Position numbers and translations under genes: made by a program. DNA of 24,000 nt from Alkalibacterium putridalgicola (GTDB taxonomy: Bacteria > Bacillota > Bacilli > Lactobacillales > Carnobacteriaceae_A). The stretch is from contig NZ_FOBL01000009.1 of NCBI RefSeq assembly GCF_900109825.1, positions 60,843-84,842 on the forward strand. The letters are read 5' to 3'. Positions 17,987 through 24,000 of this stretch are shown here, in pieces. Under the pieces are notes generated by a model that was given only the letters and a program-made list of their open reading frames with translations, did no database searches and was not told the origin of the DNA. Each line of letters starts with the position of its first letter. Position 1 is the first letter of the stretch.

Positions 17987-18115
17987 CTTTAGTCCTCCAT
18001 AAAACATTTAACACCATTGTATCATGATTCAAATTGGATGAGTAATATACTTAGTATGAAAGCAGAGCAAAATATATTTGTTACCATAATTCTTGAAGTA
18101 ACATCCACCTAGTTC

Positions 18116-18167
18116 TTTTTTACATTCTTGCTATGATTGAAAATGATATAAGCGAGAATGTAAAAAA
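18116..18167. repeat. 17-bp inverted repeat with an 18-nt loop in the SEC-C/cas9 divergent intergenic region
   Basis: ttttttacattcttgct (18116-18132) pairs with agcgagaatgtaaaaaa (18151-18167), with one G-U position. The T-run is 5' and the A-run 3' on both strands, so it is not a canonical terminator. Confidence 0.6.
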
Positions 18168-18303
18168 ACTCATTTATTGTTACAGATTCTATATTTTTGT
18201 ACGTTCTTCACCTGGTTAATTATTCTTTATAAATCAATAGGATATTCACTTAGTGCAAAAATGAGTAGAATTTAAAAATCCAGAGAAATTGAATCCCTTT
18301 TCA

Positions 18304-18312
18304 TGTTACAAT
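18304..18312 (+). promoter_or_regulatory. Candidate extended -10 promoter for cas9
   Basis: TGtTACAAT lies at 18304-18312, ~38 nt upstream of the cas9 ATG. Several other AT-rich -10-like hexamers are nearby, so the assignment is tentative. Confidence 0.3.
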
Positions 18313-18349
18313 GGTATAAATATATACAATGAGATTGGGAGGAAATATA

Positions 18350-21300
18350 ATGGCAAATAGAGTTTTAGGATTGGATATTGGTGTGTCGAGCGTCGGCTGG
18401 GGAATTATCGATAAAGATACGAATGAGGTTATCGATGCAGGCGTTCGGTTGTTCGAAGAAGCGACACGCAATGCGAATGAAGAAAGACGTAGTTTTAGAG
18501 GAGCTCGTCGCTTAAAAAGACGTCGTAAACATCGCCTTGAACGTGCAGAAGACTTTTTGCAATCAAACGGTTTTCCTGTAGACAGTATCGGTTCTATTGA
18601 CCCCTATCGTGCTCGCTATGTTGGTTTAAAAGAGGAACTGTCAAAAAAAGAGCTGGCTGCTGCTCTTTATCATTTGATCAAACGACGTGGGACAACCATT
18701 GATACACCCGCAGAAGATGATAAAACTTCCGGCAATGAATTATCTACTAAAGAACAACTGAAACGTAATGCGAAAAAGTTGGAAGATAAACATGTCGTAG
18801 AAATTCAGTATGAAAAATTGGTGAACAATGAGGTCGTTCGTGACCATACGAATCGTTTCAAGACAAGTGACTATATCAATGAAGCAAAAGCCTTGCTTGA
18901 AACTCAAAGTAAATACCATGCTGAAATTGATGCATCTTTTATCGAAGGGATTATCGAACTCATTAACAACCGCAGACAATATTATGATGGTCCAGGATCT
19001 GAAAAATCTCCTACCCCTTATGGTCAGTGGTACTATGATGAAGAAGGCATCTTACAGTATGAAACGATGATCAATAAAATGCGCGGAAAAGGTACTTATT
19101 TTACAGATGAATTGCGGATACCTAAAAAAGCCTATACGGCAGAACTCTTTAATGTCTTAAACGACTTAAATAACCTCCACTTTCCTCGGGATGAGACCCT
19201 AGATAGTTTAACCACTGAAGAAAAAGAAACGCTTATAAAAACCCATATAGATAAAGGAAGTAAAATAACACTGAAAAAAATCGCTAAACTTGTGGGTATC
19301 TCTGATGAACTGGATATCAAAGGCGCCCGATTGAACTTAAAGACAAATAAACCGATATTTTCAGAGTTTACTGGCCTGAAAAAACTAAAAAAAGATTTGG
19401 AAGGTATCGATGTTCCAGAGGGATTCTTTGAAAATAGAGAAGTTTTGGATAAAATCGCTGAAATACTGACGGCTGAAAAAAGCATCGCTCGCCGTGAAGA
19501 ACAGCTGGGTCAGTTATTCGAACAAGCATATAGTAGTCCCTTGAGCGATGTAGTTGCAGGCCTAGTCAATGACACATCGTTCAAGGAATACCACGCACTG
19601 TCTAAAAAAGCTATGGATCTTATCTTGCCTGAACTGTGGGAGACCAATAAAAATCAGATGCAGCTCTTTACAGAACATGGACTTGGGAAAAGTCGACTGG
19701 AACAGCTACAGAAAGAATCAAAAATCCAGTTTGATGATGAAGCTATCTTAAGTACAGTCGCTCGTCGCGCCCACCGGGAAGCCATCAAAGTAACAAACGC
19801 AGTCAGAGAAAAACATGGGGAACTTTCTCATGTCGTTGTCGAAATGGCACGCGAAAAGAACAGTGACGAAGCAAAGAAATCCTATAACGATTATCAGAAA
19901 AAAATTGGTGCGTTTGAAAAGAAAATGGCCAAACTGCTTGACGTCAAAGAATTAAAAGACTTGAAACTGAACGGAAAACAGATGCTGGCTTTGAAACTGA
20001 TGGATAGCCAGGATTATAAATGTATCTATACAGGTAAGCAAATTTTACCTCATGATATTGTAAACCAAGAGTATCAGTTTGAAATCGATCACATCATCCC
20101 TCTTTCCTACTCTTTTGATGACAGCCAGCAAAATAAAGTCTTATGCTATCGTCAAGAGAACCAGGATAAAGGTCAACTGACCCCTTTCCAGTATTTTCAA
20201 AGCGGCAAGGCGAAGCGGACATTTAATGAGTTTAAAGCCGAATGTACCAATTTGTTCAACTCTAAAAAGATATCAAAACGCAAGTTAAATTATCTGCTCG
20301 AACAGCGTGACGTGCAGCACGATCCAGAAATCCAAAAGAACTTCATCAACCGCAACCTTGTTGATACGCGTTATGCCATGCGTAGTTTGTCATCAAACTT
20401 AAGAACATTCTACATGAATAACGACATTGACACGAAAGTCTTATCTATCAGAGGAAGTTTTACCTCTGCACTCAGACGTCGTGCTCGCCTCCATAAAGAT
20501 AGAGATGAAAGCCATGCCCATCATGCTATCGATGCACTGATCGTATCAGCTATCGGTACTACACCGATACTGAAACAGTTTAAAGCAGTCGACTTTAACC
20601 GTGAAGGTATTGCGGTCAATACAGAAACAGGTGAGATCATCAGTGAAGAAGAAATCTTTGCCTCCCCTACCTTGAAGTTCATTCATTGGTTGAGGAATAT
20701 GGAAAGCGAGATCAAGTATTCTCATAAAGTCGACCGAAAACCCAACCGAACCATGACAAACCAAACTCTCTATTCTACTCGAGAAAAAGATGGTGACAAG
20801 TATGTTGTTGGAAAAGTAAAAAATATCTATGAACTGGATAAAAAAGGATTCGACTCACTTAAGAAAAAAATTGACAAAGATCCAGATAGTTTCCTGATGG
20901 CCCAGCATGATCCCAAGACATGGGAACTCGTTTTAAAAGTCATGGATGAACATAGTCACGCGGACAATCCTTTCCAAGATTTTAAAAAGCAGCATGGTCA
21001 TATAAAAAAAGACGGAAAGGTTCCAGTTAAAGGACTAAAATATCTCGATAATAAAATAGGCATCCATGTCGATATCTCTCATAAATTTCCAGAATCCAAA
21101 CGTGATGTTGTTCTCCTTAGTCGTAAAAGCATCCGTATCGATGTGTATCAGAACGATGAAGGGAAATATAAGTATTTGGGCGTCCCTTATAACTGGTTTA
21201 CAAAAGAAGGCGATCATTACGTTCTAGATAAAGAAAAATATTATGGTAAAGAAGGATTGGCAGCCCCTTACAAACAAATAGATGATTCCTATACATTCCA

Positions 21301-21592
21301 GTATAGTTTTTATAAAAATGATCGGATTTCGTATGACAAGTATGAGAAAATGGAAAATCCAGAAACCGGAGAAAAAGAAAAAGTAATGGTACATCATGAT
21401 AAGATCTTTAGAGGAGACACAAATCCAAGACAAAACCAAATTGAGATTGATGACATAGCCTTCAAGTTTAATGGAAGACAATTCATCACCCTTGGTAAAC
21501 TAATAAATTTAGAAAAGTATAACATCGATATACTAGGAAATGAATATCTTATTGAAAAAGAAGAACTTCAGGATAAAATTCCGGCAATTTAA
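18350..21592 (+). CDS. cas9: Cas9 endonuclease, compact type II-A (SaCas9/St1Cas9-like), 1080 aa
   Basis: ATG at 18350 is preceded by GGGAGGAAATATA; the track's 18329 start lacks an RBS.
- RuvC-I: MANRVLGLDIGVSSVGWGII, with the Asp codon at 18374-18376.
- Arg-rich bridge helix: RRSFRGARRLKRRRKHRLER.
- RuvC-II: VVVEMAREKN.
- HNH: YQFEIDHIIPLSYSFDDSQQNKVLCYRQENQDKGQLTPFQY, with the His codon at 20090-20092.
- RuvC-III: HHAIDALIV.
Long stretches are colinear with SaCas9 as I recall it (GNELSTKEQ, NRFKTSDY, FINRNLVDTRYA, YSHKVDRKPNR, DILGN). Confidence 0.97.
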   Translation: MANRVLGLDIGVSSVGWGIIDKDTNEVIDAGVRLFEEATRNANEERRSFRGARRLKRRRKHRLERAEDFLQSNGFPVDSIGSIDPYRARYVGLKEELSKKELAAALYHLIKRRGTTIDTPAEDDKTSGNELSTKEQLKRNAKKLEDKHVVEIQYEKLVNNEVVRDHTNRFKTSDYINEAKALLETQSKYHAEIDASFIEGIIELINNRRQYYDGPGSEKSPTPYGQWYYDEEGILQYETMINKMRGKGTYFTDELRIPKKAYTAELFNVLNDLNNLHFPRDETLDSLTTEEKETLIKTHIDKGSKITLKKIAKLVGISDELDIKGARLNLKTNKPIFSEFTGLKKLKKDLEGIDVPEGFFENREVLDKIAEILTAEKSIARREEQLGQLFEQAYSSPLSDVVAGLVNDTSFKEYHALSKKAMDLILPELWETNKNQMQLFTEHGLGKSRLEQLQKESKIQFDDEAILSTVARRAHREAIKVTNAVREKHGELSHVVVEMAREKNSDEAKKSYNDYQKKIGAFEKKMAKLLDVKELKDLKLNGKQMLALKLMDSQDYKCIYTGKQILPHDIVNQEYQFEIDHIIPLSYSFDDSQQNKVLCYRQENQDKGQLTPFQYFQSGKAKRTFNEFKAECTNLFNSKKISKRKLNYLLEQRDVQHDPEIQKNFINRNLVDTRYAMRSLSSNLRTFYMNNDIDTKVLSIRGSFTSALRRRARLHKDRDESHAHHAIDALIVSAIGTTPILKQFKAVDFNREGIAVNTETGEIISEEEIFASPTLKFIHWLRNMESEIKYSHKVDRKPNRTMTNQTLYSTREKDGDKYVVGKVKNIYELDKKGFDSLKKKIDKDPDSFLMAQHDPKTWELVLKVMDEHSHADNPFQDFKKQHGHIKKDGKVPVKGLKYLDNKIGIHVDISHKFPESKRDVVLLSRKSIRIDVYQNDEGKYKYLGVPYNWFTKEGDHYVLDKEKYYGKEGLAAPYKQIDDSYTFQYSFYKNDRISYDKYEKMENPETGEKEKVMVHHDKIFRGDTNPRQNQIEIDDIAFKFNGRQFITLGKLINLEKYNIDILGNEYLIEKEELQDKIPAI

Positions 21593-21601
21593 AATAAAGG
21601 G

Positions 21602-21630
21602 TTTACATGTATATCTTGGCTTGGTATAAT
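21602..21630 (+). promoter_or_regulatory. Sigma-A promoter of the tracrRNA
   Basis: TTTACA (21602-21607), 17 nt spacer, TATAAT (21625-21630), with a TGg extended -10 (21622-21624). It begins 10 nt after the cas9 stop. Confidence 0.8.
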
Positions 21631-21636
21631 ATAGTT

Positions 21637-21738
21637 GTCCTCGACGGAGGACTCCGTTATACCAAAGGTTGAGAGAACCTACCAAAAAAAGGCTTTATGC
21701 CGAGATCACAGATCAGCCCCTTCATTGGGGCTTTTTTG
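21637..21738 (+). ncRNA. tracrRNA: tracrRNA (~100 nt primary transcript)
   Basis: Anti-repeat 21653-21687 pairs with the CRISPR repeat at 23928-23963 as 16 bp, a U-U mismatch, 7 bp, a 3-nt/1-nt bulge, then 8 bp. This gives 31 bp in total. A nexus-like hairpin GGC-UUUAU-GCC follows (21691-21701), then GAUC-ACA-GAUC. The terminator is AGCCCC-UUCAUU-GGGGCU plus U6 (21715-21737). The 5' end is predicted from the promoter only. Confidence 0.88.
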
Positions 21739-21769
21739 GTATCCAAATCCATGAAATGAGGTGTTCCAA

Positions 21770-22672
21770 ATGAGCTGGCGCGTCGTGTATATCGAAAAGT
21801 CTGATCGGCTGAAATTGTATCTGGATAATTTAAAAGTTGTCAGAGAAGAATCCGAAGTCCTCATCCCCTTATCCGATATACATACCATCATCGTTGATAA
21901 TCAGCAAACCGTTGTCACTGCAAGACTTATTAATAAACTTTCCAAATATCATATCCTGCTCGTTTTTTGTGATGAAAAACATCTTCCAAACACCTACGTC
22001 TTGTCTCCCCACAGCCATCATCAGTCATCCAAGATGCTGAAAAAGCAAATAGGTTGGTCCCCTGCTGTCAAAGAAATCATGTGGAAACAAATCATACAAA
22101 TAAAGATTTATAATCAGGCCTCCGTACTTCACCATTTAAAGCGGAGTGAACCTGTGATTCATCAGCTGTATGATCTTGCGGAAACGGTTCAGCAAGCTGA
22201 CCAGTCTAACCGTGAAGGTCATGCGGCTAAACTGTACTTTAAGGAACTCTTTGGTTCCTCCTTCATACGTGAACGCAGCAGTCTAGACGGCATCAACTCG
22301 GGACTGAATTACGGCTATATCGTCATGCGCTCAACTGTTGCGCGTAGTTTGATAGCTTCAGGGCTTCATCCTGGCCTTGGCATCGGTCACGACAATCAGT
22401 ATAATGCCTTTAATTTAGCTGATGATTTGATCGAACCGTTCAGACCAATTGTTGACCTATGGGTAGCTGTTTTGATGAGTGAAAAGGATTATCTTGACAT
22501 AAAAACCAAACAAAAACTCGTGTATTTGATCAGCAACAATAAAATTATGATTGGCAATCAGAAGCAAACGATTTTAAACGCAATATCTCTTCTCATTCAA
22601 AGCTTTATAAAAAGCATGGATGAAGAAAATCCCGATTTACTGGTGTATCCAGCTAATGGGATCGCCATATAG
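21770..22672 (+). CDS. cas1: Cas1 integrase (type II)
   Basis: ATG at 21770 is preceded by GAGGTG. The sequence MSWRVVYIEKSDRLKLYLDNL..., SNREGHAAKLYF, LNYGYIVMRS, FNLADDLIEPFRP follows the type II-A Cas1 pattern. Length is 300 aa. Confidence 0.95.
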   Translation: MSWRVVYIEKSDRLKLYLDNLKVVREESEVLIPLSDIHTIIVDNQQTVVTARLINKLSKYHILLVFCDEKHLPNTYVLSPHSHHQSSKMLKKQIGWSPAVKEIMWKQIIQIKIYNQASVLHHLKRSEPVIHQLYDLAETVQQADQSNREGHAAKLYFKELFGSSFIRERSSLDGINSGLNYGYIVMRSTVARSLIASGLHPGLGIGHDNQYNAFNLADDLIEPFRPIVDLWVAVLMSEKDYLDIKTKQKLVYLISNNKIMIGNQKQTILNAISLLIQSFIKSMDEENPDLLVYPANGIAI

Positions 22673-22985
22673 ATTTATGCGTCTCATGCTATTTTTTGAT
22701 TTGCCAATGAATACACGAAGCGAAAGACGAACGTATGCGAGATTTAGAAAGTATTTGATAAAAAATGGCTTTACCATGGTTCAATTTTCAGTTTATTCAA
22801 AGATCTTTCCTAACCGCAGTTCTTTAGATACGTATATGATGACATTAAGACAGAATCTGCCAAAACATGGTTCGATACGGGCAATGGCTGTTACTGAGAA
22901 GCAGTATAATAAAATGTACCTACTCGTAGGCGACCAGACATTGACTGAACAGACGCTGACAGATAATACGATGGTGATCTTATGA
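22656..22985 (+). CDS. cas2: Cas2
   Basis: MGSPYRFMRLMLFFDLPMNTRSERRTYARFRKYLIKNGFTMVQFSVYSK aligns with type II-A Cas2 N-termini (SpCas2 begins MSYRYMRMILMFDMP, as I recall). The start is uncertain: 22656 (overlaps cas1 by 17 nt) or ATG 22677. The track's 22620 is unlikely. Confidence 0.9.
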   Translation: MGSPYRFMRLMLFFDLPMNTRSERRTYARFRKYLIKNGFTMVQFSVYSKIFPNRSSLDTYMMTLRQNLPKHGSIRAMAVTEKQYNKMYLLVGDQTLTEQTLTDNTMVIL

Positions 22986-23917
22986 AAGAGTGGCGAATTA
23001 ACGATCCAAAAGGTACCACATTATTAATGAGTCAGATAACTCTTCTAAAAGGTGCTATTTTTGAATGGCAGGAAGTTATAGAACGGATTAGACTAACGTT
23101 TGAATTAAAAAAATATGATCTTTTTGAAAGTGAAGAAAAAATATATGTCGATGATTATTATTTAAGTATCTTGTCAAATTCTGATGACTATTATTCTTCA
23201 AATTTAAAGGACTCTAAAGACTCCTTAATGGCCTTGTTTATAGCTTACTTAGAACTGTCCCCTTTCTACAAAAATCTTGTTGAAAGCTGGGAAGAATTAC
23301 AGGAAGAAGTCGAACTTTTGAGCCAAGAACTCGGTTATTCTGCCGAAGTTCGATTAGATGATTATAAAAAGAATATTATCGAGGATCATTTAAAATGGAA
23401 AAGTAGCAAGGGAAATGCTTTGGAGGAAATGCTGCAGCAGATTAAGTTGACGAAAAAGTCTAAACCGGATAAAAGACATATTTTTATCCTAATATCTCCT
23501 GAAAAAATCTTAAACGATAAAGAGTTGGTAAAACTGAATGATCAACTACAGCAATCACCAGGTTATTTTATTGTTGTAAGTGGTTTTTCGTTTTCAGGCT
23601 CTCAGAATATTTTATACAATGATCAGATAATTAATCAGGAATCTGTAACAAGCTATAAAGACACAATAAGCACCCTATTACCTTTTGTATTCAGTGAAAA
23701 CAAATTTGAGAACTCTCTAAAGTGGTATATTAACTCTGTGGATAAAAGTAATGGAAACATCATAAAATTATCTCTATCGTCTGTGGATAACTTGGAAGAG
23801 TTAATTTATGTTTTTATAATGATATACGTAACTCAACTCCCGTTTACTGTTGACTACACGGGCATTCCTGAAGGTTACAAAAAGTACATTGAATCAGTAA
23901 TTGAATCTGAGGTATAA
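22982..23917 (+). CDS. csn2: Csn2-like protein, long form (311 aa), assigned mainly by position
   Basis: It is the fourth gene of a cas9-cas1-cas2 operon and is directly followed by the array. Its start overlaps the cas2 stop (ATGA). The central block KRHIFILISPEKILNDKELVKLNDQLQQSPGYFIVVS resembles the Csn2 core (SpCsn2 [37 protein letters not shown], from memory). Overall similarity is weak. Confidence 0.7.
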   Translation: MKEWRINDPKGTTLLMSQITLLKGAIFEWQEVIERIRLTFELKKYDLFESEEKIYVDDYYLSILSNSDDYYSSNLKDSKDSLMALFIAYLELSPFYKNLVESWEELQEEVELLSQELGYSAEVRLDDYKKNIIEDHLKWKSSKGNALEEMLQQIKLTKKSKPDKRHIFILISPEKILNDKELVKLNDQLQQSPGYFIVVSGFSFSGSQNILYNDQIINQESVTSYKDTISTLLPFVFSENKFENSLKWYINSVDKSNGNIIKLSLSSVDNLEELIYVFIMIYVTQLPFTVDYTGIPEGYKKYIESVIESEV

Positions 23918-23918
23918 T
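23889..23918 (+). promoter_or_regulatory. Candidate pre-crRNA promoter embedded in the 3' end of csn2
   Basis: TTGAAT (23889-23894), 18 nt spacer, TATAAT (23913-23918). The -10 overlaps the csn2 TAA stop (23915-23917). The predicted start of transcription is ~3 nt before the first repeat. Confidence 0.5.
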
Positions 23919-23927
23919 GAAATTGGC

Positions 23928-24000
23928 ATTTTGGTACTCTCTCATCCTTTGGTATAACGGAACTGTATCCGATAATGGTAGTACGCTTAATTATTTTGGT
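23928..24000 (+). CRISPR. Start of a type II-A CRISPR array (repeat 1, spacer 1, first 8 nt of repeat 2), truncated by the window end
   Basis: Repeat 1 is ATTTTGGTACTCTCTCATCCTTTGGTATAACGGAAC (23928-23963, 36 nt). The spacer is tgtatccgataatggtagtacgcttaatt (23964-23992, 29 nt). ATTTTGGT recurs at 23993-24000, giving a period of 65. The repeat is complementary to the tracrRNA anti-repeat and shares the GTACTCT core with Sa/St1-type repeats. The repeat/spacer boundary is uncertain by 1 nt. Confidence 0.85.

Follow-up and report, generated by a model that had tools for sequence, protein, structure and literature searches.

A tracrRNA gene with a hairpin ahead of its anti-repeat in the type II-A CRISPR-Cas locus of Alkalibacterium putridalgicola

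The 24,000-nucleotide (nt) stretch of Alkalibacterium putridalgicola DNA analysed here, referred to below as the window, carries a type II-A CRISPR-Cas locus (short palindromic repeats, clustered and regularly interspaced, and associated proteins) in the order cas9-tracrRNA-cas1-cas2-csn2-array. At positions 21602–21737, in the 177 nt that separate cas9 from cas1, lies a complete small-RNA gene, which we suggest encodes this locus's trans-activating CRISPR RNA (tracrRNA), in the form of a transcript that begins with a short hairpin and loses it on processing by RNase III; for this reading as a whole we estimate a probability of about three in four. By all testable criteria the predicted RNA is a tracrRNA of known type. 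Compared across related loci, the 5' hairpin turns out to be usual in the tracrRNAs that accompany Cas9 proteins of the St1Cas9/SaCas9 type, where St1 denotes Streptococcus thermophilus CRISPR1, and not a peculiarity of the A. putridalgicola locus.

Results

A complete tracrRNA gene lies between cas9 and cas1

The small-RNA gene with its parts, the four cas genes, the promoter-like site ahead of the array and the first repeat all lie on the plus strand of the window. The small-RNA gene opens with a -35 box, TTTACA (21602–21607), a 17-nt spacer and an extended -10 box, TGgTATAAT (21622–21630). This promoter, already proposed in a first-pass annotation made from the letters of the window, scores 11 of 12 with the TG and is the top sigma-70-like site across positions 18000–24000. 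Its -35 region (GGTTTACA) and -10 box are kept in the loci of Alkalibacterium, Lacticigenium, Carnobacterium and Pisciglobus, with a variable spacer between them. The predicted transcript starts, 7 nt after the -10 box, with the first base of a 16-nt hairpin, GUCCUC-GACG-GAGGAC (21637–21652), followed directly by the anti-repeat (21653–21688) and, right after the hybrid region, by the nexus AAGGC-UUUAU-GCCG (AAGGCTTTATGCCG; AAGGCUUUAUGCCG; 21689–21702), whose GGC/GCC stem occupies 21691–21701. A linker (21703–21714) leads to an intrinsic terminator, AGCCCC-UUCAUU-GGGGCU plus U6 (21715–21737), in which the GC-rich terminator expected from the first reading is found as a 6-base-pair (bp) stem backed by a run of six T. 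Folding of the whole RNA gives a z-score of -3.8 relative to shuffles, and its expression as a small RNA is predicted from the promoter and the terminator.

Thirty-five nucleotides of the anti-repeat (21653–21687) align to the repeat, A21688 standing opposite repeat A1. When these 35 nt are aligned locally with the repeat's reverse complement, the score is 52, as against 25.8 +/- 2.4 for 200 shuffles, the highest of which reached 38. The pairing of anti-repeat and repeat is the longest inverted repeat of the 6-kilobase (kb) region (24 nt at 96%), and the window contains no other anti-repeat. RNAcofold, given the first repeat and the predicted RNA, returns 8 bp, a bulge, 7 bp, a U-U mismatch (T21669/T18) and 16 bp, the bulge being formed by tracrRNA ACC (21677–21679) facing repeat C10. 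This is the same near-complete pairing, element for element, that had been read from the letters. It spans repeat nucleotides 2–34, and 31 of the 36 repeat nucleotides are able to pair. The 5' hairpin, also located correctly at the outset, folds alone and remains folded beside the repeat:anti-repeat duplex. As for the array, the first-pass annotation had named non-matching repeats beyond the window as grounds for refutation; instead, the array runs on to the end of the host contig (L081), where the 36-nt repeat occurs in at least 36 identical copies separated by spacers of 30 nt, and the type II-A locus is therefore complete.

The linker contains a mini-hairpin, GAUC-ACA-GAUC (21704–21714), which the first-pass annotation had counted among the 3' elements. 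It is present and predicted by folding; in sister Alkalibacterium species the mini-hairpin is disrupted or deleted, so we rejected it as a functional element and regard it as probably incidental.

Co-variation across related loci supports the tracrRNA

A profile built from 28 Cas9 relatives yielded 80 loci in species-representative genomes. Of the relatives whose Cas9 is at least about 47% identical, most have a cas9–cas1 gap of roughly 110–240 nt that contains a homologous element; they belong to Alkalibacterium, Lacticigenium, Atopococcus, Carnobacterium, Pisciglobus, Listeria and many Bacillaceae and Clostridia metagenome-assembled genomes (MAGs). Substitutions in the repeat are matched by substitutions in the anti-repeat in L001, L006, L009 and the Bacillus and halophile clades. 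Thus the repeat and anti-repeat segments read GGTATAACGG/CCGTTATACC in the window, GGTATAAAGG/CCTTTATACC in L001 and GGTATTACGG/CCGTAATACC in L006, and the repeat ends and their tracrRNA partners read ...TATAACGG/CCGTTATA, ...TATAAAGG/CCTTTATA and ...TATTACGG/CCGTAATA in the same three loci. Within the nexus, the third pair is C:G in 13 of 30 aligned homologues and G:C in the other 17, so that pairing is kept in 100%. This compensatory swap, together with the co-variation of repeat and anti-repeat, strengthens the tracrRNA assignment. The terminator stems vary among relatives, with the T-run always behind them at the same place. Most SaCas9-like Staphylococcus loci, and the halophilic Bacillaceae loci, have a cas9–cas1 gap of merely 0–22 nt, and the anti-repeat of these clades is located elsewhere, mostly upstream of cas9.

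One departure concerns the end of the hybrid. The terminal G-U pair of the repeat:anti-repeat duplex has been described as conserved (PMC6546382). Repeats of the Carnobacteriaceae clade (L001–L011, L032) start with A (ATTTTGG) and not with the usual G, and the pair is replaced by an A-A mismatch in Alkalibacterium (23928 vs 21688), whereas in Carnobacterium an A-U pair takes its place.

The 5' hairpin is a module of the whole family

The first-pass annotation had considered a 5' hairpin abutting the anti-repeat to be non-standard. A uniform automatic test anchored on the nexus shows the opposite, since a hairpin of at least 5 bp is carried by 55 of 68 related loci, a count in which several of the misses are parsing failures and a few of the Erysipelotrichaceae-type passes look spurious (the -10 box being paired with the start of the anti-repeat). 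True absences are concentrated in Erysipelotrichaceae-type and Acidaminococcaceae-type loci. An alignment-free control drew on 47 loci with an array, in which the repeat consensus placed the anti-repeat without any folding, and took 300 random windows from each locus for comparison. In 38 of these loci, the 33-nt segment that runs up to the anti-repeat surpasses 95% of the random windows in its folding. The hairpin stem ends 0–3 nt from the anti-repeat.

The hairpin stems also co-vary. Because MAFFT alignment of the full 5' regions misregistered hairpins of unequal stem length, 16-nt cores anchored on the loop were used. Among 19 distinct cores, 100% of cells are paired and double changes occur at all six pairs; the covariation score is 1.33, compared with 0.26 after shuffling (none of 500 shuffles reached 1.33) and at most 0.55 in slid registers. 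These cores were selected by folding and are thus biased towards structure, for which the alignment-free test serves as the independent control. The stems themselves are unrelated across lineages, being GTCCTC/GAGGAC in Alkalibacterium, GTCTTC/GAAGAC in Carnobacterium, ACAACC/GGTTGT in Paraliobacillus, an 11-bp GGAGAAGTAAG/CTTACTTCTCC in Listeria, GCGATAGA/TCTATCGC in Bacillus and TACAATAC/GTATTGTA in Staphylococcus. Of 43 distinct hairpins, 18 have the loop GACG, and its closing pair may be C-G, A-U or G-C; as GACG is kept despite changes of the closing pair, the loop sequence seems to be constrained.

Hosts of the hairpin include the St1Cas9 locus, SaCas9-like Staphylococcus, Listeria, Bacillus, Carnobacteriaceae, halophilic Bacillaceae and Acholeplasmataceae MAGs; all of the hosts found belong to the Bacillota or the Mycoplasmatota. 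TracrRNAs situated in the cas9–cas1 gap, upstream of cas9 and past the array all retain the hairpin, a module that travels with the anti-repeat irrespective of the position of the tracrRNA gene. In about 20 inspected loci with the tracrRNA in the cas9–cas1 gap, the interval between the -10 hexamer and the first paired base, usually G or A, is exactly 6 nt, and the same spacing is found in St1 and in Staphylococcus locus L064. Given this fixed spacing, the hairpin would begin at the predicted transcription start (+1), without a single-stranded leader.

A different arrangement is found in halophilic Bacillaceae, where eight loci have the hairpin inside the anti-repeat, as 5'-(G/A)TCTCA-[hairpin, loop GACG]-TTAATACC... 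The two flanks, when joined, are the reverse complement of the repeat end, and the first base co-varies with the last base of the repeat (GAGAC/GTCTC, GAGAT/ATCTC). Good -10 boxes in these loci put +1 at the first base of (G/A)TCTCA, 6–7 nt upstream of the hairpin. The crRNA:tracrRNA duplex (crRNA, CRISPR RNA) of these halophiles would therefore be predicted to form a three-way junction. Loci with an inserted hairpin about 150–260 nt upstream of cas9 are L040, L044, L045, L052, L059, L061, L063, L067 and L080. A three-way junction in the window's own clade, with nucleotides ahead of the hairpin paired to the repeat end, was considered and is unsupported, the predicted +1 there being the first base of the hairpin and an ungapped comparison giving 62 matches in 161 positions overall; the junction has support in the halophiles only.

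The tracrRNA is described as hybrid, nexus and terminator alone, and a hairpin 5' of the anti-repeat goes unmentioned, in the comparative or methodological papers of Faure 2018 (PMC6546382), Mitrofanov 2022 (PMC9486595), Chylinski 2013 (PMC3737331) and Fonfara 2014 (PMC3936727). A full-text literature search returned no described 5' hairpin of type II tracrRNAs, although a prior description elsewhere is possible. For St1, Chylinski et al. (PMC3737331) predicted a primary tracrRNA of about 110 nt, which would take in the 5' hairpin; conserved structure, in their account, did not go beyond one co-variation and the terminator.

Discussion

A proposed course of tracrRNA maturation

We propose that transcription from the sigma-A-type promoter would start at about G21637 and give a primary transcript of about 100 nt, made up of the 6-bp hairpin with its GACG loop, the 35-nt anti-repeat, the nexus, the linker and the terminator. 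By homology with other systems, the tracrRNA would anneal to every repeat of the precursor crRNA (pre-crRNA; PMC3737331, PMC3936727), and Cas9 would bind the lower stem, the bulge and the nexus, as in characterised type II systems. RNase III would cut the upper stem and release the 5' hairpin together with about 10–12 nt of the anti-repeat, leaving a mature tracrRNA of about 75 nt; the hairpin would then not be part of the mature Cas9 ribonucleoprotein. Its removal is placed by analogy with Streptococcus pyogenes, in which RNase III cuts about 22 nt into the repeat. The scheme as a whole draws on what is established for type II systems (Deltcheva 2011; Chylinski 2013). A hairpin that is discarded agrees with its absence from engineered Sa and St1 single guides, and it would have its function before or during processing.

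As to what that function may be, we lean, with somewhat less than even confidence, towards a hairpin that acts as a 5'-terminal stabiliser and helix cap until RNase III removes it. By leaving no unpaired 5' end, it would shield the 5' anti-repeat of the free primary transcript, which is critical for function, from decay, a role suggested by its fixed 6-nt spacing to the -10 box; a 5'-terminal stem-loop is the classic protection from RppH- and RNase J1-dependent decay in Bacillota. It could also stack coaxially on the distal end of the duplex, capping and lengthening the helix where the crRNA strand enters the variable spacer, as suggested by the three-way junction predicted for the halophiles and by the strict abutment to the anti-repeat.

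Several points weigh against these proposals. The window gave nothing at gathering score in Rfam, the curated tracrRNA model included; at E <= 10, only chance-level matches to unrelated small RNAs (E >= 3.5) fell within 21550–21800. We infer the transcription start, the 3' end and the RNase III processing of the tracrRNA from its sequence. In the halophilic Bacillaceae the hairpin appears to be internal and not 5'-terminal, and the Erysipelotrichaceae-type and Acidaminococcaceae-type relatives do without such a hairpin, as does the working tracrRNA of S. pyogenes. Engineered single-guide RNAs (sgRNAs) of the St1 and Sa types work without it, from which it follows that the hairpin is dispensable for Cas9 cleavage. 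The conservation of GACG, lastly, is accounted for by neither the stabiliser nor the cap.

That last point is where an alternative has most to offer. The GACG tetraloop at the distal end of the helix could be a specific recognition element for a protein or RNA partner, which might set the register of RNase III cleavage or help to load or assemble Cas9 on the pre-crRNA; we think this unlikely. Loops of the AGNN type set the cleavage register for yeast Rnt1p. It would agree with a recognition element that GACG recurs from Streptococcus to Alkalibacterium to halophilic Bacillaceae while every stem position, closing pair included, turns over, and that the hairpin stays 0–3 nt from the anti-repeat even when internal, as in the halophile three-way junction. 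The loop is, however, replaced by TGATGT or TAGCT in Staphylococcus, by palindromic AT-rich sequence in Sporosarcina and Ureibacillus, and by GAAA or GATAA elsewhere; some clades have no hairpin at all, no partner sequence or protein was identified, and RNase III orthologues are reported to be interchangeable in dual-RNA processing (PMC3936727). In a broader form, in which the GACG hairpin next to the 5' end of the anti-repeat, or within it in halophilic Bacillaceae, is an undescribed functional module of St1Cas9/SaCas9-type tracrRNAs that serves dual-RNA maturation through a specific partner or a structural task and is more than a generic 5' stabiliser, the idea seems equally doubtful to us; candidate tasks may be fixing the distal helix end or three-way junction for the RNase III cut, or binding a host or Cas factor.

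The remaining explanations fare worse. The palindrome might act as DNA, as an operator or cruciform at +1 that regulates the tracrRNA and read-through transcription of cas1-cas2-csn2, and it does sit precisely at the predicted +1, at the centre of a longer imperfect inverted repeat spanning the -10 box to the start of the anti-repeat; yet genera differ wholly in stem sequence while complementarity is kept, G-U pairs included, a pattern characteristic of an RNA helix and not of DNA bound by a protein. CGACGG, the conserved loop, is itself no palindrome, and no regulator gene lies alongside the locus; we regard a DNA-level role as very improbable. Still less credible is a cas9 mRNA 3' stabiliser or processing stop outside the tracrRNA, to which the position of the hairpin, 45 nt past the cas9 stop codon in the window, would lend itself: the hairpin also abuts anti-repeats situated upstream of cas9 or on the far, downstream side of the array, where no cas gene precedes it, and its distance to the cas9 stop varies widely, while those to the -10 box and the anti-repeat are fixed. 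The mRNA stabiliser was rejected on the ground that the hairpin accompanies the anti-repeat to other positions of the locus. Finally, the notion that the segment is a degenerate, silent remnant of a repeat, with the true tracrRNA encoded elsewhere, for which one may cite the lack of transcript evidence and of an Rfam match, has next to no chance of being right, given that this is the sole anti-repeat in the window, that genera have kept the promoter, the nexus and the terminator in common, with co-variation, and that the homologous St1 gap is the site of the tracrRNA predicted by Chylinski et al. (PMC3737331).

Relation to known systems

The St1 system is the closest in gene organisation. As in A. 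putridalgicola, its tracrRNA lies in the cas9–cas1 gap on the strand of the cas genes, in a type II-A locus with a long Csn2, and shows the same succession of -35 box, 17 nt, TATAAT, 6 nt, 6-bp GACG hairpin, anti-repeat, 3-nt bulge, nexus and terminator. A metagenome scan with the St1Cas9 nexus sequence retrieved 117 S. thermophilus-type loci, which read TATAAT, 6 nt, GTAAGG-GACG-CCTTAC and then ACAGTTACTTAAATC... The St1 nexus, AAGGCTTCATGCCGAAATCA, compares with AAGGCTTTATGCCGAGATCA in A. putridalgicola, the common form being AAGGCTTnATGCCGArATCA. The two systems differ in repeat, anti-repeat and terminator hairpin and in the hairpin stem (GTAAGG/CCTTAC in St1, GTCCTC/GAGGAC in Alkalibacterium), and since the A. 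putridalgicola repeat begins with A, the terminal G-U pair is missing from it.

The Cas9 protein points in a slightly different direction. In a search of the Protein Data Bank it matches the SaCas9 structures 5AXW and 5CZZ, its nearest among solved Cas9 structures, with E = 3e-196 and the St1Cas9 structure 6RJ9 with E = 5e-158, and is placed by its sequence within the compact II-A clade of SaCas9 and St1Cas9, nearer to SaCas9. The predicted gene organisation is of the St1 type even though the protein is closer to SaCas9. The Sa-like architecture claimed in the first-pass annotation stands for the bulge and the nexus, and gives way to St1 where the organisation of the gene is concerned.

SaCas9-type loci of Staphylococcus (L046, L049–L051, L060, L064, L069, L074) share with A. 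putridalgicola the repeat core GUACUCU, a 3-nt bulge opposite C10 (AUC in Sa, ACC in Alkalibacterium), a nexus of the form AAGRC-N5-GYCG and a covarying hairpin directly ahead of the anti-repeat. Their tracrRNAs, where located, nevertheless lie outside the cas9–cas1 gap, mostly upstream of cas9, the gap being mostly 0–15 nt (87 nt in L051 and 866–906 nt in L069 and L074); their loops are not GACG, their nexus loop is AAAAU, their 3' hairpins differ and their Cas9 identity is about 40%. Comparison of the guide architecture with L050 (Staphylococcus) and L083 (St1) shows that the A. putridalgicola RNA has the lower stem of 8–9 bp, the 3-nt bulge opposite a single repeat C and the AAGGC-N5-GCCG nexus of both. 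On guide orthogonality, which had been raised as a possibility, the resemblance of lower stem, bulge position and nexus to Sa and St1 would argue neither way.

With the tracrRNA of S. pyogenes, the predicted RNA shares the functional parts from anti-repeat to terminator (PMC3737331) and presumably the same maturation by RNase III and Cas9. Additional sequence 5' of the anti-repeat is also a feature of tracr-L and of small CRISPR-Cas-associated RNAs (scaRNAs); in tracr-L, a repeat-like segment folds onto the lower stem and a short guide is directed against the cas9 promoter (Workman 2021; bioRxiv 10.64898/2026.06.01.729453). The 5' element of A. putridalgicola, by contrast, consists of a 16-nt hairpin complete in itself, which sits at the predicted +1 and carries no guide, and the sole upstream complementarity is 9 nt, TTGGTATAA (21621–21629), which lies in the promoter and concerns the upper stem only. 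A natural sgRNA of the tracr-L kind, or an autoregulatory scaRNA, was rejected because there is no upstream likeness to the lower stem and because TGGTATAA, which directly follows the putative cas9 promoter motif, is not conserved in sister species. The S. pyogenes tracrRNA reportedly lies upstream of cas9 on the opposite strand, with an anti-repeat of about 25 nt and no 5' hairpin.

As a tracrRNA, the RNA is routine: with it the A. putridalgicola type II-A locus is fully annotated, and the guide-RNA parts are at hand should the 1080-amino-acid (aa) Cas9 become a tool. What goes beyond the three-part description of tracrRNAs, which omits it, is the 5' hairpin that covaries, and often has a GACG loop, in native tracrRNAs of St1 and Sa, two compact Cas9 families in wide use, and of their many relatives. 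If the hairpin controls tracrRNA stability or RNase III geometry, native crRNA biogenesis would have a new determinant in it; its sequence and structure signature could then sharpen tracrRNA prediction tools, and it may offer a design element for dual-RNA or reprogrammed-tracrRNA uses in Gram-positive hosts.

Promoter and repeat resemble each other

The -10 region of the tracrRNA gene (21618–21636) is a partial sense copy of the 3' half of the repeat (23946–23963), as is also seen in L001, L008, L033 and L059. The segment TTGGTATAA, which overlaps the -10 box and corresponds to repeat nucleotides 22–30, is identical in the promoter and the repeat of the window, and in L001 an 11-nt segment, TTTTGGTATAA, is identical to that locus's own repeat. 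With this sense copy on one side and the anti-repeat on the other, the gene resembles an inverted pair of repeat halves flanking a hairpin. The sequence TGGTATAA occurs four times in the 24 kb, in each case in the CRISPR locus, where 0.38 occurrences would be expected, and a permutation of own against other repeats gives p ~0.001, uncorrected for phylogeny. The likeness is compatible with an origin of the tracrRNA by array rearrangement, or with a repeat that simply contains a -10-like motif. In a read-through transcript from cas9 (21620–21666), pairing may be possible between UUGGUAUAA, in the -10 region, and UUAUACCAA, the first part of the anti-repeat; the stem of the 5' hairpin would thereby become a long one, in which the anti-repeat is sequestered.

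Genes and signals around the tracrRNA gene

The cas9 gene occupies 18351–21592 and encodes 1080 aa (TIGR01865, 629 bits), with an ATG at 18351 behind a ribosome-binding site, GGGAGG. A 1087-aa open reading frame at 18329–21592 is 100% identical to A. putridalgicola Cas9, and the true start is probably the ATG at 18351, as in the 1080-aa database protein, and not 18329. Upstream of the gene (18290–18351), the motif CCCTTTTCATG(T/A)TACAAT is kept in sister species and is likely to be the cas9 promoter. Downstream of the tracrRNA gene follow a type II cas1 (21770–22672; TIGR03639, 313 bits), cas2 (22677–22985; TIGR01573) and csn2 (22982–23917; 311 aa), which defines subtype II-A; the Csn2 protein has no match in Pfam or NCBIfam and is recognised by the PADLOC Csn2 models with E = 1e-119. 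Between the tracrRNA terminator and the cas1 start codon there are 32 nt (21738–21769), too short for a promoter, and cas1-cas2-csn2 would therefore be read through the tracrRNA terminator from the cas9 or the tracrRNA promoter.

The first CRISPR repeat, ATTTTGGTACTCTCTCATCCTTTGGTATAACGGAAC (23928–23963, 36 nt), is the only copy before the end of the window, and the leader between csn2 and this repeat is only 10 nt long. A promoter-like site, TTGAAT-18-TATAAT (23889–23918), overlaps the csn2 stop; as a putative array promoter identified by its match to the consensus only, it would start the pre-crRNA about 3 nt ahead of the first repeat. On the other side of the locus, between a SEC-C-domain gene and cas9, a 17-nt inverted repeat (18116–18167) with 94% complementarity and flanking T- and A-runs looks like a bidirectional terminator.

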